From a virus (lineage: Duplodnaviria > Caudoviricetes), in IMG/VR virus record IMGVR_UViG_3300031820_000096, positions 1 through 35,407 of that record: 35,407 bases of DNA; one strand, written 5' to 3'. Under the pieces are notes generated by a model. The model saw only the letters and a list, made by a program, of their open reading frames with translations, was not told the DNA's origin and did no database searches. The position numbers and the translations under genes were made by a program. Positions within the stretch are counted from its first letter, which is position 1, and each line of letters opens with the position of its first letter. Positions 1 to 32,909 of the stretch are shown one piece after another.

Positions 1-147
1 CAGCCGATCATGGTAGCCGTTGAGGTAGGAATCGACGTGGCCGGCAATCTCCGGCCGGTATCTCTCGGCTTCCCGCGCAGAGATTGGAGCATCTCCTAAG
101 TCGCCGTCTGTGTAGCCCATCAGGAACGCGCGTCGGCTTGTCATCAT
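1..147 (-). CDS. Hypothetical protein, runs off the window (MMTSRRAFLMGYTDGDLG...)
   Basis: ATG at 147 preceded by AGGAGAGG; frame open to the window edge; follows the upstream stop at 154. Confidence 0.55.
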   Translation of the reverse strand, partial: MMTSRRAFLMGYTDGDLGDAPISAREAERYRPEIAGHVDSYLNGYHDRL

Positions 148-829: not shown

Positions 830-1254
830 CAAGAATCGACGCCGGGCCCGGGCGTTGTTGCAGGGCGTGAGACGGGGGGAGTTTCGCTGCGTTTTCGCCT
901 AATTTACACCTCCGCCGAATCTACACCCAGAGCGGCGCGGTCGGAGTCTAGCGGCCCGGCGATGCCGACCGACCGCTCGGTAGGCCGCGGCGCGGCAGAG
1001 CGGCGGAGCGGCCCGGCTCGCCCCCCGCGCCCCACTCTAGAGTCGCCTATGCTAGACTGGAGACTAGACTAGACACCGCGGCGGATCGGCATAGGCATCT
1101 CGGCACGGTTGCCTAGGCGCAGCCCGGTCCCTAGGTCGGCAGCCCCGGCGCGGCCCCGTGGCCCCCCCTTCACTCGCTCGTCCGCCCCCGTCAGGACCCC
1201 CATCCTCCGCGCCGGAAAAATGGAATTCCGCGCGAATCCGACTAAGTCCCGCAG

Positions 1255-1267
1255 AATCAACGAGTTA
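1255..1267 (+). promoter_or_regulatory. IHF-binding consensus site
   Basis: AATCAACGAGTTA matches WATCAANNNNTTR; lies in the non-coding region upstream of the terminase genes. Confidence 0.5.
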
Positions 1268-1324
1268 CGTAGGCGTGCGGGGATGTGCGGAGCGTGCCAC
1301 CGCCAGTTGTGGGCGCGGGCGAGG

Positions 1325-1353
1325 TTGACACCATCGGTAGGAGCGCGTATGTT
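1325..1353 (+). promoter_or_regulatory. sigma70-type promoter for the packaging/structural operon
   Basis: TTGACA (1325-1330) - 17 nt - TATGTT (1348-1353). Confidence 0.7.
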
Positions 1354-1359
1354 GATGTC

Positions 1360-2169
1360 ATGTTCGTCGGAAAACGGCGGCGGGGGCGGCCCCCGAAGGA
1401 CGGCGGCGGAATCACGCGCATTTCGGTCGAGTCGCACCTCGGCCGGGATGGACTTTCGGTCGGAGATCGGCTGACGCAAGCCGTCCAACCCGCCCTCGCC
1501 CTCCCCGATGACATCCCGCTCGCCGAAATGGTCGCCGCGCAGCCCCGCTCGAACGGAAATTCCCTCGTCGCCTACCCCAATGTCCTCCGAAACATCGTCT
1601 GGCTGGCCTTTTGCGGGCTCCGAACGAACGAAATCGCCCGCCGAGTGGGCTGGGCACCGACCACCATCGACAATTTCATCAGGAGCGACGACTTCACCCG
1701 GCACTACGAGCGGGAACGCGCCTCGATGCTCGCCCGTGTCGATGAATCCATGCGCGAACGGCTCCAGGAGGTCGTCCTGGAGGCCATCGAGACGAAGATC
1801 GACCTGATGCGGAACGCCGACAAGCAGTCGCTCCGCAACCAGGTCGCCAGCGAACTCATCGAACTGGGCCGCGCCGCGCTGCAAATCGGCCGGACGAACG
1901 TGTCGGACTTGCTCAAGGCGATCCATACCAAGGCGATTACGGAGCGCACGGATGGAACACGCACAACGACGGAACGGGTCACGCTCGAAGGCACCCCGGC
2001 GACCGTCGCCGCTGCTGTCCGCGGTGGTGATGGAGCAGTCGGAGGTGGCCCGCCGCCTTCACCTGACGATAGCGCAGGTGCAGGTGGCGCAGGAGAACGC
2101 GCTGCGGAAGTTGCGCTGCCTCCTGGAAGCGCGGGGAGTGACCCGGGAGACGGTGGCGGCGGCCTTTAA
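1360..2169 (+). CDS. Putative terminase small subunit / HTH DNA-binding protein with N-terminal AT-hook-like motif
   Basis: KRRRGRPPK at the N-terminus; HTH-like GLRTNEIARRVGWAPTTIDNF; helical middle; position upstream of TerL. Start at ATG 1360 chosen from the promoter position. Confidence 0.6.
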   Translation: MFVGKRRRGRPPKDGGGITRISVESHLGRDGLSVGDRLTQAVQPALALPDDIPLAEMVAAQPRSNGNSLVAYPNVLRNIVWLAFCGLRTNEIARRVGWAPTTIDNFIRSDDFTRHYERERASMLARVDESMRERLQEVVLEAIETKIDLMRNADKQSLRNQVASELIELGRAALQIGRTNVSDLLKAIHTKAITERTDGTRTTTERVTLEGTPATVAAAVRGGDGAVGGGPPPSPDDSAGAGGAGERAAEVALPPGSAGSDPGDGGGGL

Positions 2170-2293
2170 CCCGGCCGCACGCCGACCCGCCGACAGCAAC
2201 GAGCCCGCCGAGGAGGAAGACGGCGCGCTGCGGCTGCTGCGGCGGCTGTTTGGCGTCGGCGCGCTGGACGATGACGGCGAGGAGCCTGACTGA
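1952..2293 (+). CDS. Small protein with sigma70 region-4-like HTH
   Basis: QSEVARRLHLTIAQVQVAQENALRKLR resembles sigma region 4.2; TGATG coupling to TerL; start 1952 (GGAG RBS) or 2030. Confidence 0.55.
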   Translation: MEHAQRRNGSRSKAPRRPSPLLSAVVMEQSEVARRLHLTIAQVQVAQENALRKLRCLLEARGVTRETVAAAFNPAARRPADSNEPAEEEDGALRLLRRLFGVGALDDDGEEPD

Positions 2294-4020
2294 TGCACCG
2301 CGACGGCACCCTCGAACCCGGCGACGTCTCCCCCGCCCGCGTCCGCGACGATCTGCTCGACGAGGTCCGCGGCCCGGACGGGCTCCACTTCGTCGCGACG
2401 AGGCTGATTGGTATGGACCGCCTCTCCGCGACCATCCACAAGCCCGGGCAGCGTTGGTTCCAGGCCGCCATCACCCGCCCCGACGCCATCGTCGCCTATC
2501 GCGACCCGCGCAGCAGCGGCAAGACCTCCTCGATCACCATCTCCTTCCCGTTCTGGCTCTGGGCGCAATTGCCGCAGCCTGGCACCCCGCAGCAGGGCAT
2601 CAACTCGCGCATCGCCATCGTCGCGCCGAAGAAGGACATCGCCTCCTACTCGTTCCTGTCGCGCATCGTCCGGGTCTACAACGAGTCCGAAGCCTACCGC
2701 GCCCTCTGCCCCTGGGTCCGCATCCGCACCCAGTCGATGAAGACCGGGCTGCTGCTGTTCCGCACGGTCGAGGTCGGCGACCCGACCATCACTCCCTGCG
2801 GCATGGAGTCGGTCTCGACGTCCTTCCACTTCGACTTCGGCTTCATCGACGACCCGATCCATGAGCAAAACTACTTCAGCGAGATCGAGGTCCGGCGTAT
2901 CTGCGAGTGGATGCTCCTGTCGCGCAACCTTGTCCGCTCGGAGCACGGCGCCCTCGCCTTCATCGGCAACTTCTGGCGCATCGGCGACGTGCAGGACCAG
3001 TTGCGGCCGACAAACCCCTACTTCCGCGACGTGCAGGTCTGGGAGCGCGGGCTGACGGCCTGCGCGGGCTGCGTCGGCGGCCGCGAGCCGGGCCACGTCC
3101 ATGAGCCGCCCTTTTTCCCGGTCGCGTTGCTCAACCCCGACGGCTCCGCGCCGGACGTCTCCTTCATCGACGCCGCCCGCGCCTCGATGCCGACCTACAT
3201 GTACCAGGCGCAATGCGAGAACAACCCGGTCGATCCCTCGACGCTGCACTTCGACAAGGCGTGGCTGCGCCAGTGGTCCTGGCACCACACCCCTGGCGGC
3301 GAACCGGCGCTGCGGGTCGGCGCCAGCCCGGGCCGCGTCGAGGAGGCGCGGCGTATGGGGAACTTCAACTTCGAGCATAGTGCGGGCGGCCCCGACGGCG
3401 CCCACGAACTCATCCCCCTCGCCGCCCTCTCCATGTATCTGCTGATCGACCCGGCGCCTTCGGAGCAGGCAGCGTCGGATCGCTCCCGCTTCGCCATCGC
3501 CCTCGTCGGCTGCGAGCGAACCGGCTCGCGCCGCTTTCTCATCGAGGAATACGCCCGCAACGCCCCGGCCCACGAACACATCAACGCCATCCTCGACCTC
3601 TATACCCGCTACCGGCCCTACGTCCGCCGCATCGCCGTCGAGTCGGTCGGCTACCAGGCGACCATCCCCGACTCGATTCTGACAACGGCACGCGCCCGGG
3701 GGATCAACAGCCTGCGCTCCGCCGACATCATGCCTCTGCCGCGCCTCCGTGCCGAGGGCGCCCAGGAAGACCGCATCCGTTACGCCCTCTCGCCGATCAT
3801 CGAGTCGGGGTGCTTCTACATCAACGCCGCGCACCGGATCTTCCGCGAGGAATACGACAAGTTCGGCGTCAAGGGGGCGAAGCACGACCTCCTCGACGCC
3901 ATCAGCAACGGGCCGCGCGTCTGGGGCCACGGCCGCACGGCGACCGAGGGCCTCGCGGCGGCGGCGGTCGCCACGGCGCAGCAGCGGCGGCGGGACGCCG
4001 ACCCGACGACCGGCTATTGA
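2293..4020 (+). CDS. terL: Terminase large subunit
   Basis: Walker A PRSSGKTS, Walker B FGFIDDP, RNase H-like nuclease acidic motifs LLIDPA, IAVES and KHDLLDA. Confidence 0.92.
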   Translation: MHRDGTLEPGDVSPARVRDDLLDEVRGPDGLHFVATRLIGMDRLSATIHKPGQRWFQAAITRPDAIVAYRDPRSSGKTSSITISFPFWLWAQLPQPGTPQQGINSRIAIVAPKKDIASYSFLSRIVRVYNESEAYRALCPWVRIRTQSMKTGLLLFRTVEVGDPTITPCGMESVSTSFHFDFGFIDDPIHEQNYFSEIEVRRICEWMLLSRNLVRSEHGALAFIGNFWRIGDVQDQLRPTNPYFRDVQVWERGLTACAGCVGGREPGHVHEPPFFPVALLNPDGSAPDVSFIDAARASMPTYMYQAQCENNPVDPSTLHFDKAWLRQWSWHHTPGGEPALRVGASPGRVEEARRMGNFNFEHSAGGPDGAHELIPLAALSMYLLIDPAPSEQAASDRSRFAIALVGCERTGSRRFLIEEYARNAPAHEHINAILDLYTRYRPYVRRIAVESVGYQATIPDSILTTARARGINSLRSADIMPLPRLRAEGAQEDRIRYALSPIIESGCFYINAAHRIFREEYDKFGVKGAKHDLLDAISNGPRVWGHGRTATEGLAAAAVATAQQRRRDADPTTGY

Positions 4021-4473: not shown

Positions 4474-7400
4474 ATGGCCGATCAAGTCCCCTACCCCTCG
4501 ACCGGCACCAACCAGCCCGGCCTCGCGCAGTCGCCCTCGGCAAAGGTCGGCGAGACCCGCGAGTCCTACGGCGGCATCGCCCTGACGACAACCGAGGCCG
4601 CCCGCCTCTGCGGCTTCCTGCACGACGAGATCACCCGCGCCGAAATGGAGACCCGGCCGTTCCGCGAGTCGATCATCCTCTGGCGGGAGTTCGTCGATCC
4701 GCGCCCGCGCGAGAAGGCGTTTCCGTGGCCGCACGCACCCCTGTCACGCGACACCGAAATCTGCACCCGCGCCGGGTGGTGCCGTGTCGATGCCGTCCGG
4801 GTCGGCGATCTCGTTCTGACCCGTCAGGACGGCAGCAGCCTGCTTGAGTGGGCGCCGGTCGAGGCGCTGCCCCGCGTGCAGGCCGAGACACTCATCCATT
4901 TCCGCAGCAAGTCCATCGACCAACTTGTCACGGGCGAGCACCAGATGGTCGTCCGCACCGAGGCGAGTCAGACACAGCGGATGTCGGCGCACATGGCGTG
5001 GAAGGCAACGGGCCTCCGCGTGCCGCTGACCGGCCAATGGTTCGGCGAGACGCCAGACGAACTCTTCGGGCTTGATGCGGGCGACGTCATGGAGTTCCTC
5101 GGCTGGTTCACGGCGGAGGGTTGGCAGGGAGAAGGACCCGACGGCCCGAACGGATCGATCTACATCGGCCAGAGCAAGACGGCGAATCCCGAAAAGTGCG
5201 CCCGCATCGAGGCGCTGCTGAACCGCTTGGAGTTTTCGTGGACGCGGCTAGCCAGCAACGAGGCATATATGATCCGGGCGCGGACGATCCCCGCCGCGCT
5301 CCTCGCAGAACTTCGCCAGTTCGGCCATGCCCATGAGAAGCGCGTGCCGCCGTTCATCTTCGATCTTAACGCGGCGCTGATCGGGCGCTATCTTGAGGGC
5401 GAGATTCTCGGGGACGGGCATACCCGTGCGCCGCAGGCCCACCAGAACTACGAATCGACGTCGATGACGACAGTATCGGAGGGTCTTGCTGGCGATCTCC
5501 AAATCCTCATCCAACTCACGGGTAAGCGTGCTTCGGTGATCCGGCAGGAACCCGGGGCAGGCGGCGTTATTCGAGGACGTCCAATTCATGGTGTTCGCCC
5601 CCAGTTTACCATCCCCGTGTTGCACAAGGACTACGCCAAACTCGACGCGGCCAAGGAGGCGGCGGCCGTGCCTTACAACGACACGGCCTTCTGCGTCACC
5701 GTCCGCAACCATGCGATCTACGTCCGCCGCAACGGCATCGCGTCGTGGACCGGCAACTCGTCCGTCTTCGTGCCGATCCCCCGCATCGTCCTCGACGCGC
5801 TGAAGGCCAGCATCAAGCAGACCATCACCAAGCAGAAGCGCCTGTTCGTCGCCGAGGTGACGTCGCCGGAGCACGCCGGGATCGCCCCCGACGCCGAGTT
5901 CGAGGCGACCCAGGCCGCCGTCGAGTTCGCCGAGTACGTCTCCCTCGACCCCGGCCATCTCGACCTGAAGCGCGTCCTCGACGAATGGGCCGAGGAGATG
6001 CTGGTGACGGGCATCGGCCCCCTGAAGGTCACGCTCGACGACGACTCGCGCAAGGTCACGACCCGCAGCGGCACGGCGACCGTGACGTTCCACCGCGGCC
6101 CGCGCATCCTCGTCGTGCCGGTCGGGACATGGATCTGGCCCGCCGGAATCTGGCACAGCGTCCAGGAGATGCCCTGGGTCGGCAACTGGGTCATGCTGAC
6201 CGAGGCCGCGCTGCGCGTCCGGGGCGCTGCTCCCTGGGGCTACAAGGACGTCGAGGAGGTCATCAAGATGGGCGGGGAGCAACTCTCCTCGGACCCCGAC
6301 ACGGCCACGCGGCTGGAGTCGCAGGGCCAGATGCCCCAGGTCCTCGGCCACCGCATCTACGAGGTCTACTACGTCTGCGACCCCTACGGTGACGGCCGCT
6401 TCTACGACCTCGTCATCACCTACTCGCTGCGGGCGAATCGCATCCTGCGTATCGTCCTCGGCGACGGCATCAAGCCCTTCGAGGTCGAGGTCGCCTCGCC
6501 GCGCCCCGGCACCGTCTTCGGCCGCGGCGTCATCGAGCCGATTATCCAGCCCGTTCGCGCCATCAACACGGCGGTCAACCAGACCTTCGACGCCCAGACG
6601 CTCGCCAACGCGCCCTGCCTCCTGTACCCGGAGGACGGCATGGCGGCGGAGGTCCTGGCGAATGGCTTCACCCCCGGAACCCCCGTGCCCTACAAGGAGG
6701 AGAAGGACGAGATCGGCGTGCTGAAGTTCCCCGACCCCTCGGCGACCTCGTTCGAGACCGTCGCCTTCTTCAAGGGCATCATCGAGGAACTGACGCGCAT
6801 CGGGCCGAATCGGCTCGGGGAGGTCTCGGAGGGCCGCCGGACACCCGCCACCCTCGGCCTCGCGACCCAGCAACTCGGCGCCGAACTGATCGACGAACTC
6901 ATCGACCGGATACGCGACACCATCGGCCGGGTCATGTCGCGCGTGTTCGTCCTCTACTACGAGTCCGACCGGGGCATCTTCCAGCGTGTCCTCGGCCTGG
7001 CGCGCGGGACGCTCCTGGAAACCATCATCGGCAAATCGGTGCGCGAGCAGCGGTCGCTCTCCGAGGCGATCCGCATCCGGCTGTTCGCGTCGTCGGCGAC
7101 TCGCTCGGTCGAACTCGACAAGCAGAACGCGGTCGCGGTCTCCCAGGCCGCGCAGGGCTGGCGCCGGGAGATCGTCGAGTACGCCCAACTTTTCCTCCAG
7201 GCCGGGGCGCTTCCCAACGGCGCCGCCGCGCAGGGGCTCCTCCTCGACCTGGTGCGCTCCTCCGAGGAACAGATGCGCCGCCTGGTCGAAATGAGCAACC
7301 AGCCGGATGCCAAGACCATCATCCCGGAAATCTCCAAGCGGCTCGCCGCGCTGGCAGCGCCACCTCCCGCCGCCATGCCGGGCATCCCCCCGGGTGCTGC

Positions 7401-7533
7401 CGCTGGAGGGCCGCCGGGGGCCGCGCCGGGCGGGCCTCTCCAACCACCTCCGGGTGCGCCCCCGGTGTCGCCCGGGCTGCCGGACCTCATCGCGGCCATC
7501 GCGGCGGGCGGCGGGGGAGGCGCCGTTCAGTGA
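4474..7533 (+). CDS. Portal protein (P22-like) precursor containing a 340-aa intein; spliced product 679 aa
   Basis: Follows TerL; removing residues 89-428 restores FPWPHA|SSVFVP; portal-like segments FGRGVIE and AINTAVNQTFDAQTLAN; Pro/Gly-rich C-terminal tail. Confidence 0.88.
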   Translation: MADQVPYPSTGTNQPGLAQSPSAKVGETRESYGGIALTTTEAARLCGFLHDEITRAEMETRPFRESIILWREFVDPRPREKAFPWPHAPLSRDTEICTRAGWCRVDAVRVGDLVLTRQDGSSLLEWAPVEALPRVQAETLIHFRSKSIDQLVTGEHQMVVRTEASQTQRMSAHMAWKATGLRVPLTGQWFGETPDELFGLDAGDVMEFLGWFTAEGWQGEGPDGPNGSIYIGQSKTANPEKCARIEALLNRLEFSWTRLASNEAYMIRARTIPAALLAELRQFGHAHEKRVPPFIFDLNAALIGRYLEGEILGDGHTRAPQAHQNYESTSMTTVSEGLAGDLQILIQLTGKRASVIRQEPGAGGVIRGRPIHGVRPQFTIPVLHKDYAKLDAAKEAAAVPYNDTAFCVTVRNHAIYVRRNGIASWTGNSSVFVPIPRIVLDALKASIKQTITKQKRLFVAEVTSPEHAGIAPDAEFEATQAAVEFAEYVSLDPGHLDLKRVLDEWAEEMLVTGIGPLKVTLDDDSRKVTTRSGTATVTFHRGPRILVVPVGTWIWPAGIWHSVQEMPWVGNWVMLTEAALRVRGAAPWGYKDVEEVIKMGGEQLSSDPDTATRLESQGQMPQVLGHRIYEVYYVCDPYGDGRFYDLVITYSLRANRILRIVLGDGIKPFEVEVASPRPGTVFGRGVIEPIIQPVRAINTAVNQTFDAQTLANAPCLLYPEDGMAAEVLANGFTPGTPVPYKEEKDEIGVLKFPDPSATSFETVAFFKGIIEELTRIGPNRLGEVSEGRRTPATLGLATQQLGAELIDELIDRIRDTIGRVMSRVFVLYYESDRGIFQRVLGLARGTLLETIIGKSVREQRSLSEAIRIRLFASSATRSVELDKQNAVAVSQAAQGWRREIVEYAQLFLQAGALPNGAAAQGLLLDLVRSSEEQMRRLVEMSNQPDAKTIIPEISKRLAALAAPPPAAMPGIPPGAAAGGPPGAAPGGPLQPPPGAPPVSPGLPDLIAAIAAGGGGGAVQ
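4738..5757 (+). mobile_element. Intein with LAGLIDADG endonuclease domain, atypical Pro1
   Basis: Block A PLSRDTEICTRAGW, block B VTGEH, blocks C/E FLGWFTAEG and YLEGEILGDG, block F TAFCVTV, block G RRNGIASWTGN|S. Confidence 0.93.
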
Positions 7534-9996: not shown

Positions 9997-10905
9997 ATGG
10001 CACTCACAACCTCGTCTGTATCGCCGCTGCTCGTCGAGGGCATCCGCAAGTTGGTCGGCGACGAGTTCCGGCGCTACCCGCTGGAATACCCCGACTACCT
10101 GAACACCTACACCTCGCGCAAGAACTTCGAGTTCGACCGTGAGGTCGTCGGTCTCGGCTCCCTGACCTTCAAGACCGAGGGCGGGGCGATCACCATGACC
10201 GACCCGGTGGTCGGCCGTGAGAAGCGGTACACGCACGCCGCCTTCGCGCTGGGCGTGCGGACGACCTGGGAGGCCGAGGACGACGAACTCTACGGCTTCA
10301 TCCGGCGGACGCTCTCCTCGCTCGGCAAGTCGGCCAACGAGACGCTCAACATCGAGGGTGCCGGGCTGTTCAACCGGATGGACTCCGGCGACACCACCCC
10401 CTTCACCGGCTTCGACACCTTGTCGCTGCTGAACGCTTCGCACACCCACCCGCTCGGCTCGACGATGGCCTACACCAGCAACAGGACCGCGGCGGACATC
10501 TCCGAATCGGTCCTCCAGTCGGCGCTGATCCAGTTCGAGAAGATCCAGGACGCCGCCGACAACCGCATCGACGTCGGGCGCCCGGCGAAGTTGATCATCA
10601 CCCCCGACCAGATGTTCTTGGTCCGGGAGATCCTGGAGTCCGAGGGCAAGCCGTTCACGGCCGACAATACGAAGAACGTCCTGAAGGGGATCATCACCCC
10701 GGTCGTGCTCCACTTCGGCATCACCGGGCTCGGCCGCTGGCTGATCCAGGCCGAGCAGCACGACTGCAACTTCTTCATGCGGACGGCGCCGGTCCTCGAC
10801 TCCTACGACGACAAGTCCACCAAGTCGCAGGTGAACACCATCGCGACGCGGTTCGCGCTCGGGTTCGGTGACTGGCGGTCGGTCTACGGAAGCCCGGGGG
10901 TCTAG
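9997..10905 (+). CDS. Major capsid protein (Mu gpT-like HK97 fold)
   Basis: 302 aa; KTEGGAI, PAKLIITPD and C-terminal RFALGFGDWRSVYGSPG typical of this MCP group. Confidence 0.85.
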   Translation: MALTTSSVSPLLVEGIRKLVGDEFRRYPLEYPDYLNTYTSRKNFEFDREVVGLGSLTFKTEGGAITMTDPVVGREKRYTHAAFALGVRTTWEAEDDELYGFIRRTLSSLGKSANETLNIEGAGLFNRMDSGDTTPFTGFDTLSLLNASHTHPLGSTMAYTSNRTAADISESVLQSALIQFEKIQDAADNRIDVGRPAKLIITPDQMFLVREILESEGKPFTADNTKNVLKGIITPVVLHFGITGLGRWLIQAEQHDCNFFMRTAPVLDSYDDKSTKSQVNTIATRFALGFGDWRSVYGSPGV

Positions 10906-17729: not shown

Positions 17730-18229
17730 TGACGACCCGCGACCTGACCCTCGCCCCGCCCGTCCGCCCCTTCGTCGGGCTGCGCGGCCTCGACGGCTTC
17801 GGCGGTGGTGGCTACGACGCGCCCCGGATGGATGCGTCGGGGCAGCACTACGGCCACCGGGGCCTCGACTTCCGGGCCGATGTCGGGGCGGCCATCGTCG
17901 CGCCCTGCCCGTGCATCGTCCAAGCCATTGGCATCGCCTACCTCGGCAGCGACCTCGCCTCCCTGCACCTCGACGGCATCGGCGAGTTCGCGGATCTCTC
18001 GCTGAAGTTGCTCTATGTCAAGCCGCATCCGGATGTCATCACCAGTGCCGTGTTCGCCACCGGGGACCCGCTCGGGATCGCGCAGGCGGTCGCAGGCTAC
18101 TGGCAGGCACGGCACCCGGAGCGGGGGCTGATGCAAAATCATCTACATTTGGAGTTGCGGATTCATGAAGCGTCAGGAGAGCGGCTCGTAGATCCTACCG
18201 GCTATTTTAGTTTCCGGGAGGTCGTGTGA
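17729..18229 (+). CDS. M23-family metallopeptidase, putative endolysin
   Basis: HxxxD (HRGLD) and HxH (HLH) zinc ligands. Confidence 0.85.
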   Translation: MTTRDLTLAPPVRPFVGLRGLDGFGGGGYDAPRMDASGQHYGHRGLDFRADVGAAIVAPCPCIVQAIGIAYLGSDLASLHLDGIGEFADLSLKLLYVKPHPDVITSAVFATGDPLGIAQAVAGYWQARHPERGLMQNHLHLELRIHEASGERLVDPTGYFSFREVV

Positions 18230-18678
18230 CACCAACCGAGGCGGCATACTTGGCGGCATTCATTGACTGCGATGGTTCCATATCGGGGCACGCACGGGAA
18301 TGGGGCCATTGTACGCCGCAGGTGAGCCTAACCAATTGTGACGCAGAAACACTTCTAGAATTGGCGCGGCTTACCGGGGGGCATCTATGCACCCAAGGCA
18401 GCCGCAGTAAGCGGCATCGTGATCATCACCAGTTGATCCACTATTCTGACAAGGCCGAGCGGCTGCTGCGGGCTGTCATGCCCTATCTTCGCGTCAAGCG
18501 TCTCCAAGCAGAACTCGCGCTGATGGTGCTGGTAAATCGTGAACCCAAAGGGACGAACACGCACATGGAACCAGGCGCCAAAGCCATGCGTGAATGGTGC
18601 ATGAGAATGATCAGTCGTCTAAACAAGGGACATGCCAGCCCCGAGACGCATGATCTGCTGCCTCCAGTGGCAGCCTGA
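18226..18678 (+). CDS. Free-standing single-motif LAGLIDADG homing endonuclease
   Basis: AYLAAFIDCDGSI motif and PYLRVKRLQA; lower-GC codons than flanking genes. Confidence 0.85.
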   Translation: MTPTEAAYLAAFIDCDGSISGHAREWGHCTPQVSLTNCDAETLLELARLTGGHLCTQGSRSKRHRDHHQLIHYSDKAERLLRAVMPYLRVKRLQAELALMVLVNREPKGTNTHMEPGAKAMREWCMRMISRLNKGHASPETHDLLPPVAA

Positions 18679-24780: not shown

Positions 24781-27141
24781 ATGGCCGAGACGACCGCTGC
24801 CGACAAGGCCAAACGCCGGGCGACCTTCGCCGCGCTCGCCGCCGACCCCTCGTTGCCGGAGGAGTCCCGGCGCATCTACCGTGAGCAGGCCGGGACCGCC
24901 TCCGCCGTCCGGGCCTTCCAGCAGGGGCAAGCCGAGCCCGAGACGCCCCAGGCCCGCGTCCGCAGCACGACCTCGCGCGTCACCGCCGAAGCCCGCCGCT
25001 CGCCGTTCGCGCTGCCGGACAAGTCGCGCATCGACGAGTCGCAGCAGGGCGTGACGATCAGCGAGCGGCTCCTCCTGAAGAACCTCGCGACCAACCCCGA
25101 GGTCGCCGCCAACTGGCTGCGCGCGAAGGGCTACGAGGCATACCTCTACGAACCCGGCCAGGCGGGGACGGAGGCGGCAGGCGGCCCAGTGGCATCCAAG
25201 ATGCGTATCGCCGTCCGCAAGCCGGGCGAGCAGGACTTCAAGGTCGTCGATCCGGCGGGCTTCGACGCCCAGGACATCACCGACCTCTTCGGCGACCTCA
25301 TCTTCGGCGCGGCGGTGCCCGCAGCGGCAGCGGCCGGATTCACCCTCGCCGGGCCGCCGGGGGCCGTCGGCGGCGGGGCGTTGGCCGGGGGGGTGCTGGA
25401 GGAAGGCCGCCAGGCGCTCGGCCGGGGCGTCACCAGCCTCTTCGGCCAGCCGCCGCTGAACCCCCCCGGAACCGGCGACGAGGAGATCGGCGCCCAGATG
25501 ATCGGCGGGGGGCTCGCGGCGCCGATGGGCGAGGCGACGGGCTTTCTTGGCCGGACGGCGACGAAGGCGGTCGGCGCGGTCGGCGAGGCCGCCAAGCGCG
25601 TCGCGGGCGGCACCCTCGCCGGTCTGACCCGCGTGTCGCGCGAGCAACTCGCCCATGCGGTCGAGCAGGGCGCAGTCATCCTTCAGCCGCTCGTCGGCGA
25701 CCGTGCCAAGATGCTGGCGTCATCGCTCGCCCAGCGGACGATGCAGTTTCTCACCGGGCTCGACGAGTCGCGCACCGGCGAGTATCAGGCGGCCCAGGGG
25801 CTCCTGAAGTCGGCAGGCGGCGGCCAGGTGCGCGTCCGGCCCGTTCTAGAGGCCATCCGCAACGAGATCACCTCGCCCTTCCATGAGGTGCCGATCCCGC
25901 CGGAGAAGTTTATGGGGATTCCGGTCTCCGGGCCGTCAGCGCCGATCCTCCGGCCCCGTGCGACGACAGCGGGGCGCGTCCCGGCCACGGCAGGCCGCTT
26001 CGGTCTCGCCTCCGCCGAGAACGACCGGGTGCGCCAGATACTCGTCGAGGAAGCGTCGAACATCGCCAAGAACGCCGGGGCCGACTCCGTCGAAGAGGCG
26101 ATCCACCGCGACCTGACCATCCCCGCCGAGATGGCCGACGCGCTCAAGCGGACCTATGCCGAGGCCGCGAACTACTCCGCCGAGGCGCTCAACCGCGACA
26201 CGGCGAAGGAGGCAGCGCACAAGACCCTGGCCGATGGCCTGCGCCGGGCGATCCGGGAGTCGATCCCCGATCCCGCCGCCCGCGAGCAGTACGGTACGCT
26301 GATGACCCAGGCGGGCAAGAAACTCGGGCTCGCCAAGGAGTTCCAGAAGGCGCTGGTCGCCAAGGGCGCCGAGGAGATCGCCCCGGAGGAGGGCGCCGCC
26401 GAGGAGATCGTCCAGGCCGCCAACCGCCCGGAGCAGTTCTTCCGCACCTATCTCAACCGGGGGGCGCGCTCCGGCCAGCAGGGCCTCGTCCGGGAGTTCG
26501 GCCGCCTCTGGGCGCCGGAACTTCAGCAGGCGGGGATCGCCGACTTGGAGACCGCGGCGCGCGACGCCTCGACGCTGGCGGCTTATGGCGCCGAGGGGTC
26601 CGATGTCTTCGGCGGGACGAAGGGGATCTACCTCGGCGCGCCGACGCTCTCGTTCGGCGGCCGTCCGATGGGCATGGCGCTGGGTGCCGGGCTGGGGTTC
26701 GGCAGCGGCTATCTCGCGGGCGGCCTCCCTGGCGCTGAGAAGGGCGCCCTCATCGGTGGCGGGCTGGGCTTCTACGCCGGGTCGCCGCGCGGCTCCATCC
26801 AGACGATGCGGGCGATCAAGGCGGGCGTCAACAAGGCGGCGGAGTTCGGCAGCCTCCCGGGCGAGATCGCGGCGTCGAAGCCGGTAATGTTCGGGGCGGG
26901 CGGGGCTGGGGCGCAGGCAACCGCTGAGACCGGGGCCGCCGCGGGCCGCCAGGAAGCCGAAGCCACCCGCCGCCAGCAGACCGACGACGAGACCATGCGC
27001 GCCCTCTCCGACATCGCCAGCGAGGTTCGCAAGATGGCGGCGGCGAACCCGGCGCTGACCGCAGAGCAGATGTCCGACGAGTTCAGCAAGCGCGCCAACG
27101 ACTACCTCACGAAACGGAAGTTGGTGATGGCCTCACCGTAG
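24781..27141 (+). CDS. Large internal virion / ejection protein
   Basis: 786 aa, Ala/Gly-rich with glycine-zipper hydrophobic segments; last gene of the structural operon. Confidence 0.7.
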   Translation: MAETTAADKAKRRATFAALAADPSLPEESRRIYREQAGTASAVRAFQQGQAEPETPQARVRSTTSRVTAEARRSPFALPDKSRIDESQQGVTISERLLLKNLATNPEVAANWLRAKGYEAYLYEPGQAGTEAAGGPVASKMRIAVRKPGEQDFKVVDPAGFDAQDITDLFGDLIFGAAVPAAAAAGFTLAGPPGAVGGGALAGGVLEEGRQALGRGVTSLFGQPPLNPPGTGDEEIGAQMIGGGLAAPMGEATGFLGRTATKAVGAVGEAAKRVAGGTLAGLTRVSREQLAHAVEQGAVILQPLVGDRAKMLASSLAQRTMQFLTGLDESRTGEYQAAQGLLKSAGGGQVRVRPVLEAIRNEITSPFHEVPIPPEKFMGIPVSGPSAPILRPRATTAGRVPATAGRFGLASAENDRVRQILVEEASNIAKNAGADSVEEAIHRDLTIPAEMADALKRTYAEAANYSAEALNRDTAKEAAHKTLADGLRRAIRESIPDPAAREQYGTLMTQAGKKLGLAKEFQKALVAKGAEEIAPEEGAAEEIVQAANRPEQFFRTYLNRGARSGQQGLVREFGRLWAPELQQAGIADLETAARDASTLAAYGAEGSDVFGGTKGIYLGAPTLSFGGRPMGMALGAGLGFGSGYLAGGLPGAEKGALIGGGLGFYAGSPRGSIQTMRAIKAGVNKAAEFGSLPGEIAASKPVMFGAGGAGAQATAETGAAAGRQEAEATRRQQTDDETMRALSDIASEVRKMAAANPALTAEQMSDEFSKRANDYLTKRKLVMASP

Positions 27142-27595
27142 CCGCTACGCCCTCCGCCCGCACGACCGCGATGAACACGTCCATCCGCGGGCTCGACGGC
27201 GTCACCCCCGGTGGCGGCTCGAACGCGACGCGGCGTCGCAGCCACCTGAACTCCACCCGCCCCGCCCGCTCGCCGTCCCGCAGCATCTCGAACCAGGCCG
27301 CCCGCGTCCGCACCGGCAGAATGAAGACCCACAGCGCCGAGCCGCGCAACGCCCGGCGGATGAACGGCTCGATGTTGCTGTAGGACGGGTTGCAGAAGAA
27401 GCGGCTGCCGCCCGGCGGGTCGAGGTGCAGCGGGTAGTTCTCGACCCGCTCGATGAAGGCCGGGCAGAGCGCGTTTCCGGCGTCGGCCGCCGCGTCGCAG
27501 TCGAAGGCGAACTCGGCGTCGAGTGCCTGGAAGAGCCAGCGGGGCGTCCGCCAGTCGTCGGACTGCGCGGTCGCGGCGTTGTATCCGGGGTTCAT
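27107..27595 (-). CDS. Phage DNA N6-adenine methyltransferase (T1/HP1 Dam-like)
   Basis: DDWRTP, FDCDAAA, FCNPSY, LPVRT...WF and RVAF motifs. Confidence 0.85.
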   Translation of the reverse strand: MNPGYNAATAQSDDWRTPRWLFQALDAEFAFDCDAAADAGNALCPAFIERVENYPLHLDPPGGSRFFCNPSYSNIEPFIRRALRGSALWVFILPVRTRAAWFEMLRDGERAGRVEFRWLRRRVAFEPPPGVTPSSPRMDVFIAVVRAEGVAATVRPSPTSVS

Positions 27596-28800
27596 GGACC
27601 GCTCCCGTTGCTGCCCTTCGCCGCGACGAGCCGCACCAGCCCAGCCTCCCGCGTGACATAGCCGTCCTGCACCAGTCCCTCCTTTGCGAGCCAGACAACC
27701 TTCGCCGGGACCCCCGCCGCCTCGCCGACCTGCTTGTCGAGCAGCCGTTCATCGAGGCTGCCGCCCGCCGACTCCAGCACCCGCAGTACCGTCGCCCGCA
27801 GCCGGGCATACTGCGTCGGGACGAGGCTGCGATACGCCTGAAACATCGGTGGCAGCAGCGCCTCGACGAGCGCGGTCGCCGTCCGCAGCGGCACCTCCCG
27901 CAGCGTCTCCGGGCCATGACCCTCCAGCAGATTCACGACCGCCCCGATCTTCAGCGCGTGGGCCTGCATACACGACGCGAAGTGGCCCTCCTTCTGCCCC
28001 GCCTCCCGCCAGATGCGGTCCACGGTCGTCATGTACCAGCCCTCGAACCAGGTCCCGGCGGCGTCGTCGAGGCGCATTCGGGTCGCGCCGAACGCGCCCG
28101 GACCCAGCCGCTCCCCCATGACCGTCGCCAGCGCCCGGAGCAGGACGCCATCGAGCGGCGGCCGGGCATTGCGGTGCTTCGGCCCGTATTCGACGACGAG
28201 GAGCAGGCGGCGCAGGAAGCCCCCGGCAAGCGTCCGGGGATCGGTCGTCTCCAGCCAGTCGGGCGCCGAGGCGGCGACCATGCAGATGTAGGGATTGATG
28301 ATCTCCTCGTAGTCGTGCGCCTGCGTCCGCCGCGTATAGGGCGAGTGGCAGTCCCAGATGTCCGTCAGGAACTTCGAGTTTGCCGCCCGGTACTCCGCGC
28401 CGCCGATGAGGTCGGAGAGTTCGTGGCTGACGATCAGCCCCGCGCCCTTGCCCGACACCGCGCTGGTCTCGGCGAGGTACGAGATCAGCCCCTCGGCCGT
28501 GAACGACATCGGCAGCACCGGGGCCTCCGGGACCGCGAGATGCAGCAGCCGCGTCGCCTCCTCGATGGCGCCGGTCTTGCGGGCGCCGGACGGGCCGTAG
28601 AGGACCGTGTAGATGTTCGTGAAGCAGGCGGGGCGGCTGTCGGGGTTGACCAGGATGCGGCCGTTGACGGCGGTGGCGGCGGCGGCGAGGAGGGCATAGA
28701 GGAAGTAGGAGTCCGGGCTCTCCAGCGGCCGGACGTACTCCAGCCAGCGCGCCATGAAGCCCGTCGGCGGCAGACAGGCACGGACGTCAATGGTGGGCAT
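27592..28800 (-). CDS. DUF3987/YfjI-like P-loop NTPase (putative replicative helicase)
   Basis: Walker A GPSGARKT, TAEGLI, LTDIWDC, GGFLRRLLLV; GGGAGG RBS before ATG 28800. Confidence 0.75.
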   Translation of the reverse strand: MPTIDVRACLPPTGFMARWLEYVRPLESPDSYFLYALLAAAATAVNGRILVNPDSRPACFTNIYTVLYGPSGARKTGAIEEATRLLHLAVPEAPVLPMSFTAEGLISYLAETSAVSGKGAGLIVSHELSDLIGGAEYRAANSKFLTDIWDCHSPYTRRTQAHDYEEIINPYICMVAASAPDWLETTDPRTLAGGFLRRLLLVVEYGPKHRNARPPLDGVLLRALATVMGERLGPGAFGATRMRLDDAAGTWFEGWYMTTVDRIWREAGQKEGHFASCMQAHALKIGAVVNLLEGHGPETLREVPLRTATALVEALLPPMFQAYRSLVPTQYARLRATVLRVLESAGGSLDERLLDKQVGEAAGVPAKVVWLAKEGLVQDGYVTREAGLVRLVAAKGSNGSGP

Positions 28801-28957
28801 CGCGCCTCCCTCGCCGCTGCCGCCCGCTTCCGCCGCAGCCACCGCAGATCACCCGCATCCCCCAGAGGCGTCGCGGCACGTCGCAGCGCCGCCGAGGCAG
28901 CCAGCCGCGCCCACCGCAGCCACCGCAAGGCTGCGCCGCCGAGCCCCGTTGCTTCAT
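28787..28957 (-). CDS. 56-aa protein with two DnaJ-type CxxCxGxG motifs
   Basis: MKQRGSAAQPCGGCGGRGW...VICGGCGGSGR; ATGA overlap with the upstream ORF; absent from the supplied track. Confidence 0.6.
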   Translation of the reverse strand: MKQRGSAAQPCGGCGGRGWLPRRRCDVPRRLWGMRVICGGCGGSGRQRRGRRDAHH

Positions 28958-29306: not shown

Positions 29307-31706
29307 TCAGGCCGCCGAGGGCTCCGCCGAGGAAGCCGCCGTACTGGCGGAGGGCGTCACTCCCCGCAGCCCCTCCCGATTCTCCAGCATCGGGCACGGG
29401 TCCGGGCACGCCTTCGGGTCCGGCGGCTGCCTGTGCCGGTGTTCCTTCCCCCAGTTGTTCCCAACGGAGAAGTCCACCGGGCAGGTGAAGTTTCCGAGCC
29501 CACTGAGCCATATCTCCCTCCACGGGCGCTCCATGATCGCCCTTGCTTGCTGCACCAGGAGCGCCACCTCGCTTCGGTGGCACTCCCACAGGAATGAGTC
29601 GTGTGTCGTCGTCACCAGGGTCGCCGTCGTCAGGGCGCCGATGCCTTCCAGCGCCGGAAGCACCGCCTTGCACATGTCGCCGACCGCCGACTGCGGCAGG
29701 AAGGCCAGCGCCTCTTCCCGGTCGAGGAGCCGCCGCTGGCCGGTCGCCGGGTCCCGTCGGAACCGATGGAAGCGCAGGAGCCGCCCGAACGGATTCCGCA
29801 GGGAACCGTAATGCTCGACCGCCGCTACCGTCGCCTCCTGGAACCGCCGCAGCCCGGGCCAGCGCCGGAAGTAGGCGTCGATCAGCGCCGCCGCCTCCGT
29901 GACCTTGATGCCATACATGCGGGCGGTCTTCTGCGCCCCCAGCCCGTAGTCCCAGCCGTGGGTCGCCCGCTTGGCCGCCCAGCGCGCCTGCACCATCTGG
30001 CCGCCGAAGCGGACGAGGTGCGTGCGGGCCGCTTCCGGCGCACAGCCGAAGAGAGCAGCGGCGTTCAGCGCATGGAGATCCTCCCCGGCGGCGAAGGCGG
30101 CGATCATCGTCCGCTCGTCGGCCAGCCATGCCATGACCCGGGCCTCGATCTGGCTCCAGTCGCCCTGCACGAACACGAAGTCGGGGCGCAGCGGGCGGTA
30201 GATGATCCGGTCGCGGTCAGGAATATTCTGCGCGTTCCCCGGCGACCAGCGTGGCTTGTCGGCCTCGGCGTCGTCGCTGCCGCTGGCGATGCGCCCGGTC
30301 TCCGTGCGGTGCATCGAATAGGCGAAGTGAACCCGGCCGTCGTCCCCCGCCTTCACCCCGAGCACGTTCGAGAGGCGGCGCTGGGCGTGCTGGATCGCCA
30401 CCCGCTGTTTCAGGATGCCGACGCCCGGATGCCGCCGCGCCAGGGTCTCGATGGCGTCGGCGTCCACCTTGGCGAGATGACGCTTCCCGGTGTAGGCGGT
30501 CGGCTTGAGCCCCAGGCCCGTCACCCCGTCAAACAGCAGCCAGCGCCAGGAGTCGTCGCTCTCGCTGTCGAAGGCGTCGCCCAGCCGCCGCAGCAGCACC
30601 CGGCCGTCGGCGGCGAGTTCGCGCTTGGCACGCAGCCCCGCCCGCCACGGCGCGGCCTCGGCATAAACCCGGGCGCACTCGGAGCACTTTGCCCGCTTCG
30701 TCTGGCCGCAGTAGTCGGGATGCTCCGGGCAAATCAGCGTCGGGCAGGTGCGCTCGCCCTGGTCGATCTCGGCGTCGAGGGCGGCCAACTTGAGCCGGAT
30801 CGACTCCAGCCGCCGCCGATGCGCCGCGTCCGCCGCCGCCGCGACCTCCGCCCGCCAGCCCGCGACTTCTATCTCCGTCGCCGCCCGCAACTCCCGCCGC
30901 TTCGGCTCGTCGAGGGGGATGCCGGTCTCTTCGAGGCGAATCAACACCGGGGCCGCCGGGGCGACGGTCTCTTCGAGAAGCGGCAGCATCCCTTCCCGGG
31001 ACAGGATCGTCCGCAGCGCCGCCCAGAGACGCCAGGTGAAGACGCAGTCTAGCCCACAGTAGAGTAGAGGGTGCTGCCAGTCGGCGGCCCCTGGGAACAG
31101 CCGCCGGTAGAGCGCCTTGGCTTCCGGGGTCTCCGGCTGCTTCCAGTAGGGGATGCCGTCGGCGATGCGCGTGACGCACAGCGGCAGCCGCAGCCAGGGG
31201 CGGTCCTTCACCTCGGCGAAGGGAGGCCAGGCGAGCGCCGCGGCCTGGATGGTGTCCACGACCGGCCACGCAACGTCGAGCCCGGCGGCGTGAAACGCCT
31301 TGGTGTCGTAGGCGAAGTTGTGGCCGACCTTGACCTTTGCCGGGTCGCCGAGAATCTCCCCGACGAACGCCGCGACCGGCTCGCTCCAGGGCCAGACGAG
31401 CGCCTGCCGGTCGCCGTAGCCGATGCCGACGATGGTGATCGTCGTCGGCTGGTCCTTGGGCGTCTCGACGTCGATGGCGACGACCGGGGCGTCGCGCAGC
31501 AGTCGGGCGGCGTCGTCGAGCGACGGGTCAACGCGAATGTCGTAGTCCCTGGCCGGGGCGGTGCCGAGCCCGGCCCAGCGCAAGGCTCGGGCCATGCTCG
31601 TCGCGATCAGGGGGAGGAATTGGGGGGAGCCAGACCTCAGCGAAAATGCGGGGTGCAGCGAAACGCCGACAGCCGAAACTCTGGGAGGGAGGGTCAGACC
31701 CGTCAT
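29307..31706 (-). CDS. polA: Family A DNA polymerase with 3'-5' exonuclease, preceded by the C-terminal fragment of a UDG domain
   Basis: Exo I AIDVET, Exo II GHNFAYD, Exo III YCGLD; motif A GDWSQIEAR, B RWAAKRATHGWDYG, C THDS; N-terminal SLHPAFSLR; start ATG 31706 or 31718. Confidence 0.93.
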   Translation of the reverse strand: MTGLTLPPRVSAVGVSLHPAFSLRSGSPQFLPLIATSMARALRWAGLGTAPARDYDIRVDPSLDDAARLLRDAPVVAIDVETPKDQPTTITIVGIGYGDRQALVWPWSEPVAAFVGEILGDPAKVKVGHNFAYDTKAFHAAGLDVAWPVVDTIQAAALAWPPFAEVKDRPWLRLPLCVTRIADGIPYWKQPETPEAKALYRRLFPGAADWQHPLLYCGLDCVFTWRLWAALRTILSREGMLPLLEETVAPAAPVLIRLEETGIPLDEPKRRELRAATEIEVAGWRAEVAAAADAAHRRRLESIRLKLAALDAEIDQGERTCPTLICPEHPDYCGQTKRAKCSECARVYAEAAPWRAGLRAKRELAADGRVLLRRLGDAFDSESDDSWRWLLFDGVTGLGLKPTAYTGKRHLAKVDADAIETLARRHPGVGILKQRVAIQHAQRRLSNVLGVKAGDDGRVHFAYSMHRTETGRIASGSDDAEADKPRWSPGNAQNIPDRDRIIYRPLRPDFVFVQGDWSQIEARVMAWLADERTMIAAFAAGEDLHALNAAALFGCAPEAARTHLVRFGGQMVQARWAAKRATHGWDYGLGAQKTARMYGIKVTEAAALIDAYFRRWPGLRRFQEATVAAVEHYGSLRNPFGRLLRFHRFRRDPATGQRRLLDREEALAFLPQSAVGDMCKAVLPALEGIGALTTATLVTTTHDSFLWECHRSEVALLVQQARAIMERPWREIWLSGLGNFTCPVDFSVGNNWGKEHRHRQPPDPKACPDPCPMLENREGLRGVTPSASTAASSAEPSAA

Positions 31707-31745
31707 CGCCCCGTCCATGTCATCGAGCAGGTTCCCGCTGCCGGG

Positions 31746-31774
31746 AAGGTACGCCCGGGCGGCGGCGGTGTCAA
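31746..31774 (-). promoter_or_regulatory. sigma70-type promoter directly upstream of polA
   Basis: TTGACA (31774-31769) - 17 nt - TACCTT (31751-31746). Confidence 0.7.
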
Positions 31775-31782
31775 GGGGTGTA

Positions 31783-31902
31783 CTACGGGCGAACGAGCGC
31801 GCGCAGCAGGCCCCAGGCGCTCCATAGGAGAAATGCGCCGAACGCGGCCGTGAGCAGCGCCACGGCGACTTCTCCGAGGATCTCCTCCAGTCTATTCTGC
31901 AC
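31783..31902 (-). CDS. 39-aa single-pass membrane protein
   Basis: GAGGAGG RBS, GTG start; MQNRLEEILGEVAVALLTAAFGAFLLWSAWGLLRALVRP; absent from the supplied track. Confidence 0.6.
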   Translation of the reverse strand: MQNRLEEILGEVAVALLTAAFGAFLLWSAWGLLRALVRP

Positions 31903-32452
31903 CGGATACCTCCTCGCCCGCCGCGTGCGCCTCCCGCATCGCGTCGGCTTCGGCCCGGGTGAACACGCTGCCGTGGGCCTCCATGATCGATACGACGCCC
32001 GCCACGACCTCGGCGGCGTCGGCGCCGACGGCCTGGACGAACAGCGCCGCCGTCAGCCGGTCCAACTCGGGCTGGAGATAGGCGGCGCCACAGTGGGCTA
32101 TCGAGGCCGCGCGCACCTCCGGCGTCTCCTCGGCGGGCGGCAGGCACTTGCGGACGTTGGTGATGAAGGCGTCGGCGCCCTGCTGCGGCCCGAGGCCGCG
32201 GCGCACGATCCGCCCGCTCGGCCCGATGAAGGGCGTCGGCGGGTCGGCGGCGATCTCCTCGCGCCCGGGCGCCTCGCCGACGACGACAAGGCGGGCGTCG
32301 AACGGGCCGCAGCCAGGGACGAAGCCGCGGCGGGTCGGCGCGAGCGGGCAGCCGGGGCAGCGGTCAGGCAGAAGTGGCACGAAGGCGACTGGCGTAACGG
32401 CGGCGCGCAGCCCACGCACCAATGCCGGATCGAGGTCAGCGTCCGTCAGCAT
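31892..32452 (-). CDS. Family-4 uracil-DNA glycosylase, N-terminal portion only
   Basis: CPGC, GEAPG, FIGPSG, TNVRKC, HC (four Fe-S-type Cys); ends after SIMEAHGSVF with no HPA motif. Confidence 0.85.
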   Translation of the reverse strand: MLTDADLDPALVRGLRAAVTPVAFVPLLPDRCPGCPLAPTRRGFVPGCGPFDARLVVVGEAPGREEIAADPPTPFIGPSGRIVRRGLGPQQGADAFITNVRKCLPPAEETPEVRAASIAHCGAAYLQPELDRLTAALFVQAVGADAAEVVAGVVSIMEAHGSVFTRAEADAMREAHAAGEEVSGAE

Positions 32453-32909
32453 TGTCCTTCTCCTCTGGGTCATGGCATAGGCGGGCCTTTCGCCGTGCAT
32501 GGAACGCGAGAAACTGTGCCCGCCGACACTTCCGGCAGCCACGTCCGTAATAGTCCTTGCGCCAGTAAGTATTCGTGGCATCGTACGGGTGCCCACGCGG
32601 ACATGCTTTCCGTGTGGCCGGTTCGCCGCGCCGTGTGTTGATGGCGTGCGGCACGGCTTCGAGATGGCGTGGGTTCACGCAGCGCCGCACACGGCAGAGG
32701 TGGTCAAGTTCCAACCCCGCCGGGATCGGCCCATTGAACACCTCATAGGAGCGACGATGCCCGTAGGTGCAGCGTCCCGTCTGGCTGTAACCGAGTCGCT
32801 TGTTGTAGTAGCCCGTCCAGAACCAGCAGGGATCGGCCTGTCGTGTGTCGAGCACGACCTTGCCGAACAGCCATTCTACAGACGCGCTATCCCCTCTAGT
32901 TTGTCGCAC
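32436..32909 (-). CDS. HNH homing endonuclease with C-terminal Cys/His domain
   Basis: CWFWTG, HRRSYE, LDHLCRVRRCVNPRHLE, CPRGH...CRKC; probable GTG start at 32909. Confidence 0.85.
   Translation of the reverse strand: MRQTRGDSASVEWLFGKVVLDTRQADPCWFWTGYYNKRLGYSQTGRCTYGHRRSYEVFNGPIPAGLELDHLCRVRRCVNPRHLEAVPHAINTRRGEPATRKACPRGHPYDATNTYWRKDYYGRGCRKCRRAQFLAFHARRKARLCHDPEEKDNADGR

Follow-up and report, generated by a model that had tools for sequence, protein, structure and literature searches.

A phage uracil-DNA glycosylase fold divided between two genes, with its motif B histidine at the start of the DNA polymerase

The window examined here is a stretch of 35,407 nucleotides (35.4 kb; positions 1 to 35,407 of IMG/VR virus record IMGVR_UViG_3300031820_000096) from a tailed-phage genome of soil-metagenome origin. 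Two genes of its replication module share a single uracil-DNA glycosylase (UDG) fold, which is of family 4: one, UDG-N, encodes the N-terminal part, and the other, encoding the family A DNA polymerase PolA, begins with the remainder (the UDG-C piece). We consider it highly probable that a UDG-PolA gene has been split within its UDG domain and that the two proteins reassemble non-covalently and would excise template uracil ahead of the fork. The split itself is natural and conserved within the glycosylase fold and is no artefact. Docking of the two chains is likelier still, and uracil excision by the docked domain is, to a lesser degree, probable for this copy. A separate start or stop delimits each half, and the genes found between the halves differ from phage to phage. 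Coordinates are given in Table 1.

The match of UDG-N to the Pfam UDG family PF03167 (E-value, E, 1.1e-11) is confined to positions 2-102 of a 141-position profile, and the profile of UDG-N's own family covers residues 8-143 of Thermus thermophilus (Tth) UDGa (1ui0) and nothing beyond. It holds four cysteines, motif A (GEAPG), E66, F75, N99 and a clade-specific last helix. In PolA, the UDG-C piece is followed by a 3'-5' exonuclease and then by the polymerase domain. UDG-C contributes to the UDG fold its last strand, motif B and final helix; His-Pro-Ala occupies PolA residues 18-20, with His18 encoded at 31655-31653. The PolA frame differs from that of UDG-N, and 185 nucleotides (nt) separate the UDG-N stop from the PolA start. 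An initial annotation, made from the letters alone, had described UDG motifs that run to a loop and then stop, with the final strand, motif B and helix opening PolA in another frame about 185 nt downstream; the analysis bears out this description, and the two fragments are complementary. The same annotation had argued against a sequencing frameshift, and this too is upheld: a separately assembled Logan contig of run X1, possibly from the same source sample, matches 30500-32856 with 0 differences and 0 gaps, and six relatives break alike. Run X2 yielded nothing but short unrelated pieces.

The division runs through the active site. According to the accessible text of PMC5387724, the pocket of Tth UDGa comprises E41, G42, E47, F54, N80 and H155, with N89 positioning a water; the substitution H155S brings k2 down from 0.23 to 7.2e-5 per second, about 3000-fold (Table 1 of that paper), and N89A costs less than 10-fold. 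In UDG-N, motif A, for which the family-4 pattern is GE(A/G)PG, is G59-E60-A61-P62-G63, and E60 (the E41 equivalent), P62 and G63 are present in all 31 alignment rows, over which residue counts are given unless stated otherwise. The equivalents of the thymine-excluding E47 (E66) and of the uracil-binding N80 (N99) are invariant (31/31), and that of the uracil-stacking F54 (F75) is found in 29/31. Two of the cysteines, C103 and C121, are present in every row and the other two, C32 and C35, in 29, the remaining two rows starting later; all four align with the cysteines of 1ui0. The four cysteines of family-4 UDGs have an iron-sulfur role. The motif B equivalent of H155 is PolA His18, and His-Pro (HP) is found in 15 of the 15 polymerases that reach this column. 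Motifs A and B thus lie on separate chains, with a stop at 31892 and a new start at 31706 between them, and the same holds for 36/36 homologs. In all, five of the six family-4 catalytic positions tested are kept, and the N89 equivalent is lost. The KRRIH R-loop that marks UdgX (PMC10359453, as far as its accessible text goes) occurs neither in UDG-N nor in alignment A3. These residues suggest a site that is probably active but altered, and that needs both chains.

The same break recurs in related phages, as a survey of the breakpoint proposed with the initial annotation brought out. Twelve loci were compared: the window (L042), seven others with both parts, three that end before the polymerase (L043, L044, L050) and one distant locus (L053). 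Six of the seven (L045, L046, L048, L049, L051, L052) are split at the same loop, and the seventh, L047, encodes a single fused protein of 988 amino acids (aa); in all three loci ending before the polymerase, the UDG-N stop is at the same place. The junctions themselves are diverse. In L046 and L048 the two genes share 17 nt. Elsewhere the halves are apart, by 216 nt with one open reading frame (ORF) in L049, by 511 nt with three small ORFs in L052, by 562 nt with a MazG-like gene in L051, and, in L045, by 742 nt that contain an RNA-ligase gene (E 2.8e-18) together with a zinc-ribbon ORF; chains of overlapping ORFs lead into the polymerase start in L045, L049, L051 and L052. Because L046, L048 and L049 are close kin (synonymous divergence, dS, 0.6-0.8), the split loci amount to about five independent split lineages, the window included. 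L049 has a gene where its near kin L046 and L048 have an overlap, and the junction therefore acts as an intergenic region. No endonuclease family was matched among eight gap ORFs scanned in five loci (two loci have no gap, and one further L052 ORF lay outside the scan), and none of the seven split loci showed a homing endonuclease between its halves. Other searches reached little of this clade: PolA as a single query against viral contigs gave one candidate and no relative; alignment A2 gave 39 loci there, of which only L003, on the same contig as L001/L052, belongs to the clade and 38 are distant; and the annotated phage collection gave distant matches only (5 records; 2 records), including L002, where a UDG-exonuclease gene stands apart from the polymerase, and L054, a 905-aa polymerase gene beside a dUTPase.

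These junctions bear on whether the halves are rejoined covalently, into one UDG-PolA, through recoding (frameshift or ribosome bypass), RNA splicing or protein splicing, which we judge very improbable. The window copy by itself is compatible with a -1 frameshift: its polymerase frame is open from 32363, well within UDG-N, a feature absent from the initial annotation, and one -1 shift would fuse the halves with an insert of about 60 residues. A +1 shift in the overlap would likewise fuse them in L046 and L048. The relatives, however, exclude the -1 frameshift, since in-frame stops lie 9-147 nt ahead of the polymerase ATG in all six other split loci. The gaps vary in length and hold real genes, such as the RNA ligase of L045 and the MazG-like gene of L051; the UDG-N tails vary freely in length, and the polymerase ATG stays at the same position in all seven split loci, preceded by a purine-rich site or an overlapping stop. 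Neither half in the window matches a Hint (intein-type) domain, Rfam gave 0 matches across five sources, and the RNA fold of the gap is no better than that of shuffled sequence (z -0.58).

Protein homologs extend the pattern. The UDG-N search returned 121 matches, 120 of them listed, under a length limit of 89-326 aa to which fusions are thus invisible. The best 36 (P0008-P0043, E of at most 4e-15, the window's included) end 10-39 residues past the G-S-V-F-like motif, and HP follows that motif in 0 of the 36 (two rows being read from the alignment); of five lower matches read, four (P0044, P0045, P0047, P0048) are complete UDGs and one is a fragment. Among 150 listed polymerase representatives, 30 score at least 27 bits on the UDG-C profile. 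Thirteen of these begin with the UDG-C piece and 17 have a long N-terminal part, in which UDG-N is recognisable for 16, P0148 being ambiguous. A further polymerase search added six fusions and P0145, and the fused members within the clade include L047, P0141-P0143 and P0276-P0281. By these sequence counts, fused and split forms are both common in the polymerase family. In alignment A5, 15 of the 21 non-fused polymerases start 15-27 residues ahead of HP, and the other six, which start just after HP, are probably late start calls.

Selection has acted on both parts. We obtained ratios of non-synonymous to synonymous substitution (dN/dS) from Nei-Gojobori counts for the three pairs among L046, L048 and L049, distant pairs being near saturation. 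The ratios are 0.07, 0.13 and 0.12 for UDG-N, 0.13, 0.04 and 0.07 for the first 45 polymerase codons, and 0.08 (one pair) for exonuclease codons 49-190; as estimated from these sequences, purifying selection acts on both halves. For want of a close partner, the window's own copy is judged by residue conservation alone. It could be argued that the window shows an assembly error or a decaying pseudogene, given that the sole contig confirming this copy is possibly derived from the same sample and that the dN/dS pairs do not include the window. Set against the identical Logan contig, the same break in six other contigs and 36 proteins, and dN/dS values of 0.04-0.13, such an explanation is scarcely credible.

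The history of the split appears to be complex. A quick maximum-likelihood tree of 43 exonuclease-polymerase regions, computed without bootstrap, interleaves fused and split forms, and the fused label needs five changes on it, at least two of them forced by well-supported branches. A 35-row tree, which leaves out the long branches P0148, P0149, P0167 and P0193, the unclassified P0146 and the outgroups P0184, P0187 and P0194, has at least four changes of state and rejects a single split clade (approximately unbiased test, p-AU 0.013). The six late-start proteins were grouped with the split forms after the first tree, and most tree rows come without DNA context. The tree is compatible with a single fission and three re-fusions and equally with fissions that recurred at one loop, and recombination may have influenced the pattern. 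Linker methionines in four of 23 fused proteins (P0141, P0202, P0260, P0281) were considered as left-over starts from re-fusion; their frequency is near chance, and they were not used. Three distant polymerases, P0167, P0192 and P0190, begin shortly ahead of HP with an unrelated leader and may represent a split that arose independently at this loop; on the quick tree, P0167 has a long branch and lies outside the clade.

The family has a second break at the border between exonuclease and polymerase, near window PolA residue 240. Ten of the 12 shorter proteins printed end there in the same 'ML' (P0191, P0200, P0202-P0204, P0217, P0227, P0249, P0250, P0198), and many polymerase-only proteins begin there (P0150, P0151, P0153, P0154, P0170, P0180). 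P0198 (256 aa) consists of the UDG-C piece and the exonuclease only; it has both breaks and, unless it is a fragment, points to an enzyme of three chains. In the distant loci L002 (1727-4364) and L053 (5998-10953), a whole UDG is fused to the exonuclease, and the polymerase domain is in a separate gene 151 nt away in L002 and about 2 kb away in L053.

Structural modeling places the break on the surface of the glycosylase. The AlphaFold2 model of the L047 UDG domain, built from the 31-row alignment (predicted local distance difference test, pLDDT, 90.6; predicted template modelling score, pTM, 0.88), matches family-4 UDGs and UdgX, with a Foldseek E of 2.4e-12 to 1l9g and Z 20.6, root-mean-square deviation 2.8 and 183 residues aligned against 1vk2 and 4zbx; the phiLo structure 9qhs was matched by sequence and by fold. 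A single-sequence model of the whole 988-aa L047 protein (pLDDT 35.7) was not used. The break corresponds to loop 182-193 of the domain model, between helix 170-181 and strand 194-198. Because this helix is a clade-specific insertion into the tip of the hairpin that leads up to the last strand, the cut falls within a lengthened surface loop.

Complex modeling of UDG-N with the PolA N-terminus, proposed alongside the initial annotation, predicts an interaction. PolA 1-250 with UDG-N 20-186 scores 0.91 (0.90-0.92), against 0.00 for the best of three controls, and the mark set for this score is reached by 116/157 solved complexes and 2/215 mismatched pairs. The runs share at least 97% of contacts, with a partner pLDDT of at least 87. 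The predicted interface involves PolA 1-21, 33-53 and 169-203 and UDG-N G59/E60, and the strand and helix of PolA make about 240 predicted contacts. The initial annotation had proposed that the fragments complement each other and dock non-covalently; the fragments are complementary, and docking of the kind proposed fits the findings best. In the proposed mechanism, PolA strand 10-15, which is predicted to pair with UDG-N 136-141 and 162-165, would join the UDG-N sheet at those strands, the PolA helix and exonuclease residues 169-203 would pack onto UDG-N, and docking would place His18 beside motif A. From family-4 chemistry, free UDG-N should be near-inactive until docked, as it has no histidine to stabilise the leaving uracil. 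The docked domain would read the template 5' of the active site, by analogy with phiLo and YerA41.

Several observations weigh against this reading, in addition to the open frame of the window. First, a pass in complex modeling is to be expected for the halves of a solved fold, and the predicted score speaks for fit and likeness, not binding. Second, most of the proteins counted come without genomic context. Third, the active site is incomplete: Asn is found at the N89 equivalent (window 107-109) in 0/31 rows, and the Arg of KCR is replaced. In the L051 lineage motif A is degenerate although both halves (144-680 and 1243-3753) are kept, and in fused L047 the F54 equivalent is Ala, so catalysis appears dispensable in parts of the family. 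To judge from these sequences, a structural role alone can maintain the pair. It is accordingly possible, though doubtful, that the chains dock and that the domain serves as a template-binding subunit for structure or processivity, with uracil excision slight or absent. A processivity role has been suggested for UDG domains that are inactive, in N4-like and T5-like polymerases (PMC3201878 and PMC10201439, in their accessible parts), and neither dUTPase nor thymidylate synthase had a match among the 43 window ORFs scanned (35.4 kb, from a contig no shorter than 46.9 kb). The invariance of E60, E66 and N99 and the presence of His-Pro in 15/15 polymerases argue instead for retained chemistry. So do the small effect of N89A in Tth UDGa (PMC5387724) and the activity of the phiLo and YerA41 domains (bioRxiv 10.1101/2025.03.26.645540), each as described in the accessible text.

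The gap in the window holds, as the initial annotation had recorded, a 39-aa hydrophobic ORF with its own ribosome-binding site and a TTGACA-17-TACCTT site. The GC content of the ORF by codon position is 0.77/0.46/0.79. It matches no Pfam family, its atlas matches score 0.85 or lower and are all unnamed, and it was not encountered in the gaps of the other split relatives; it is likely a passenger gene. The pattern TTGACA-N16-18-TANNNT occurs twice in 35.4 kb against 0.02 expected, a pattern picked after the site had been seen. The second occurrence (TTGACA-17-TANNNT, 1325-1353, plus strand) lies ahead of the packaging genes, where it directly precedes the ATG of a basic peptide, AT-hook-like in character, that lies upstream of the terminase region. 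The -10 box TACCTT has three of six consensus matches, and a consensus promoter scan gave 0 sites and did not report TTGACA-17-TACCTT. The site may be a real promoter in this phage. Small zinc-ribbon ORFs that resemble each other lie in the gaps of two related phages, L045 (831-992) and L001 (5699-5827), with different neighbours.

The initial annotation had gone further and proposed that the internal promoter makes uracil excision switchable. A split kept as a regulatory device, in which the promoter or separate translation yields polymerase without the UDG half and turns excision off, could draw on the two occurrences of the pattern, one of them in the gap, and on the unequal amounts that two genes permit. 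This proposal did not hold up across the family: TTGACA-17-TANNNT is found in the gap of 0/6 other split loci, as far as this promoter type goes, which instead have the 17-nt overlap (L046, L048) or ORF chains (L045, L049, L051, L052). Polymerase made alone would, moreover, expose the strand and helix that make the contacts predicted above. We regard a regulatory origin as quite improbable; the promoter site looks to have come with the insert and not to be the cause of the split.

The replication module lies on the minus strand and comprises a nuclease, an HNH gene, UDG-N, PolA, a DUF3987 gene and a Dam methylase. The HNH gene is upstream of UDG-N and overlaps its start; it is not between the halves. 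Like this gene, a LAGLIDADG-like endonuclease gene at 18226-18678 (plus strand) is free-standing. T-modification genes left no sign in the part of the genome covered by the window, and 20 candidates from genome contigs included no relative that could give a host clue. Residues 91-173 of the 1019-aa portal protein match the intein-like Hint family (PF13403, E 3.6e-6, narrowly below the cut-off), and the portal match of this protein begins far downstream of them. The polymerase motif B at PolA 579-588 (about 29970-29940, minus strand) reads K-R-A-T-H-G-W-D-Y-G, with His at a position where polymerases usually have Phe or Tyr; this His is common to P0002, P0004, P0006, P0141 and P0276, and is not found in P0003 or P0005. 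Near the replication genes of relatives, L047 has a dATP/dGTP diphosphohydrolase with DUF4406 (5171-6105), and L044 (3916-4194) and L050 (918-1349) have a Cpn10 co-chaperonin.

Table 1. Features of the window, beginning with the divided glycosylase and the gap between its halves.
Feature	Position	Strand	Details
UDG-N, 186 aa	31892-32452	-	ATG 32452, TAG 31892; N-terminal ~3/4 of the family-4 UDG fold
PolA (P0001), family A DNA polymerase, 799 aa	29307-31706	-	ATG 31706; PF01612, PF00476, phrog_17
UDG-C piece (PolA residues 1-45)	31572-31706	-	matches the post-linker part of fused L047
39-aa hydrophobic ORF	31783-31902	-	GTG start; overlaps the UDG-N stop
Shine-Dalgarno-like GAGGAGG	31909-31915	-	6 nt ahead of the GTG of the 39-aa ORF
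Sigma-70-like promoter candidate TTGACA-17-TACCTT	31746-31774	-	40 nt ahead of the PolA start
HNH endonuclease gene	32436-32900	-	PF13392 E 2.7e-12, phrog_826; start not fixed
Nuclease	32876 upward	-	
DUF3987 primase/helicase-like	27592-28842	-	
Dam methylase	27107-27595	-	
Terminase	2293-4020	+	
Portal	4474-7533	+	
Capsid-like gene	9997-10905	+	

In the open-access papers searched, no account of a break within the UDG domain was found, although alignments in supplements could show cases; the words 'split', 'two genes' and 'fission' have 0 occurrences in PMC13697223. Should the pair reassemble, a repair protein and a replicative polymerase would share one active site in a natural split enzyme, and uracil excision would be confined to the fork. 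The domain could be added or omitted without engineering, which would offer a clean test of excision against processivity as the role of UDG domains on phage polymerases. The split would also account for many metagenome annotations of 'truncated' UDG and PolA, and its position, as a natural split point, might be useful for conditional glycosylase tools. A more elaborate proposal, which we think unlikely, is a polymerase-gated glycosylase whose site would exist only on the replisome, where PolA donates the His. Its parts would form a kit of one to three chains (UDG-N, UDG-C with exonuclease, and polymerase) with the same two joints repeatedly opened and closed, and in this copy an extra promoter ahead of PolA would allow the phage to change the ratio and to replicate with excision turned down.

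Single-chain UDG-PolA proteins that keep the catalytic residues are described, in the accessible text of PMC10201439 and of bioRxiv 10.1101/2025.03.26.645540 (PMC13697223), for SPO1/SP-10-like and SP15-like phages; the phiLo and YerA41 enzymes excise deoxyuridine, with H178, P55 and E53 at the site (bioRxiv 2025.03.26.645540). The window resembles the SPO1/SP15-like proteins in having a family-4 UDG N-terminal to exonuclease and polymerase, with the motif A Glu and the motif B His kept, and differs in that the fold is cut between two genes and the two motifs lie on different chains. Compared with phiLo (9qhs chain, 1142 residues), the window polymerase has 799 aa, and the N89 equivalent is lost. 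The N4-like PolA proteins (cluster 17 in the accessible part of PMC10201439) likewise have a UDG-derived domain on a phage PolA; unlike the window pair, which consists of two chains with five of six positions kept, they are single chains whose catalytic residues are lost. Gene fission has also divided the T7-like S-SBP1 polymerases, where exonuclease and polymerase have an overlapping stop/start and reassembly is predicted (PMC10201439, same part). The family studied here has an exonuclease/polymerase break too, but where the S-SBP1 break falls between domains, the UDG break of the window lies within one and cuts an active site in two.

The Aeh1 nrdA gene, split by mobE, yields a two-gene enzyme that assembles without splicing (PMC3045599, accessible text). 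This analogy, drawn by the initial annotation, holds for the outcome and not for the cause. In Aeh1 a homing endonuclease lies between the halves and the new tails are essential, according to the same text, whereas here none was seen between the halves in seven split loci, varied ordinary genes or nothing take its place, and the UDG-N tails of 10-39 aa are unconserved. A separately encoded UDG that docks on a replicative polymerase, as predicted here, has a counterpart in the poxvirus D4/E4 protein, which binds the B-family polymerase through A20/A22 (bioRxiv 2025.03.26.645540, accessible text). D4/E4, however, is a complete domain, and in the window the polymerase would supply part of the fold together with the histidine. 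The poxvirus UDG belongs to family 1.

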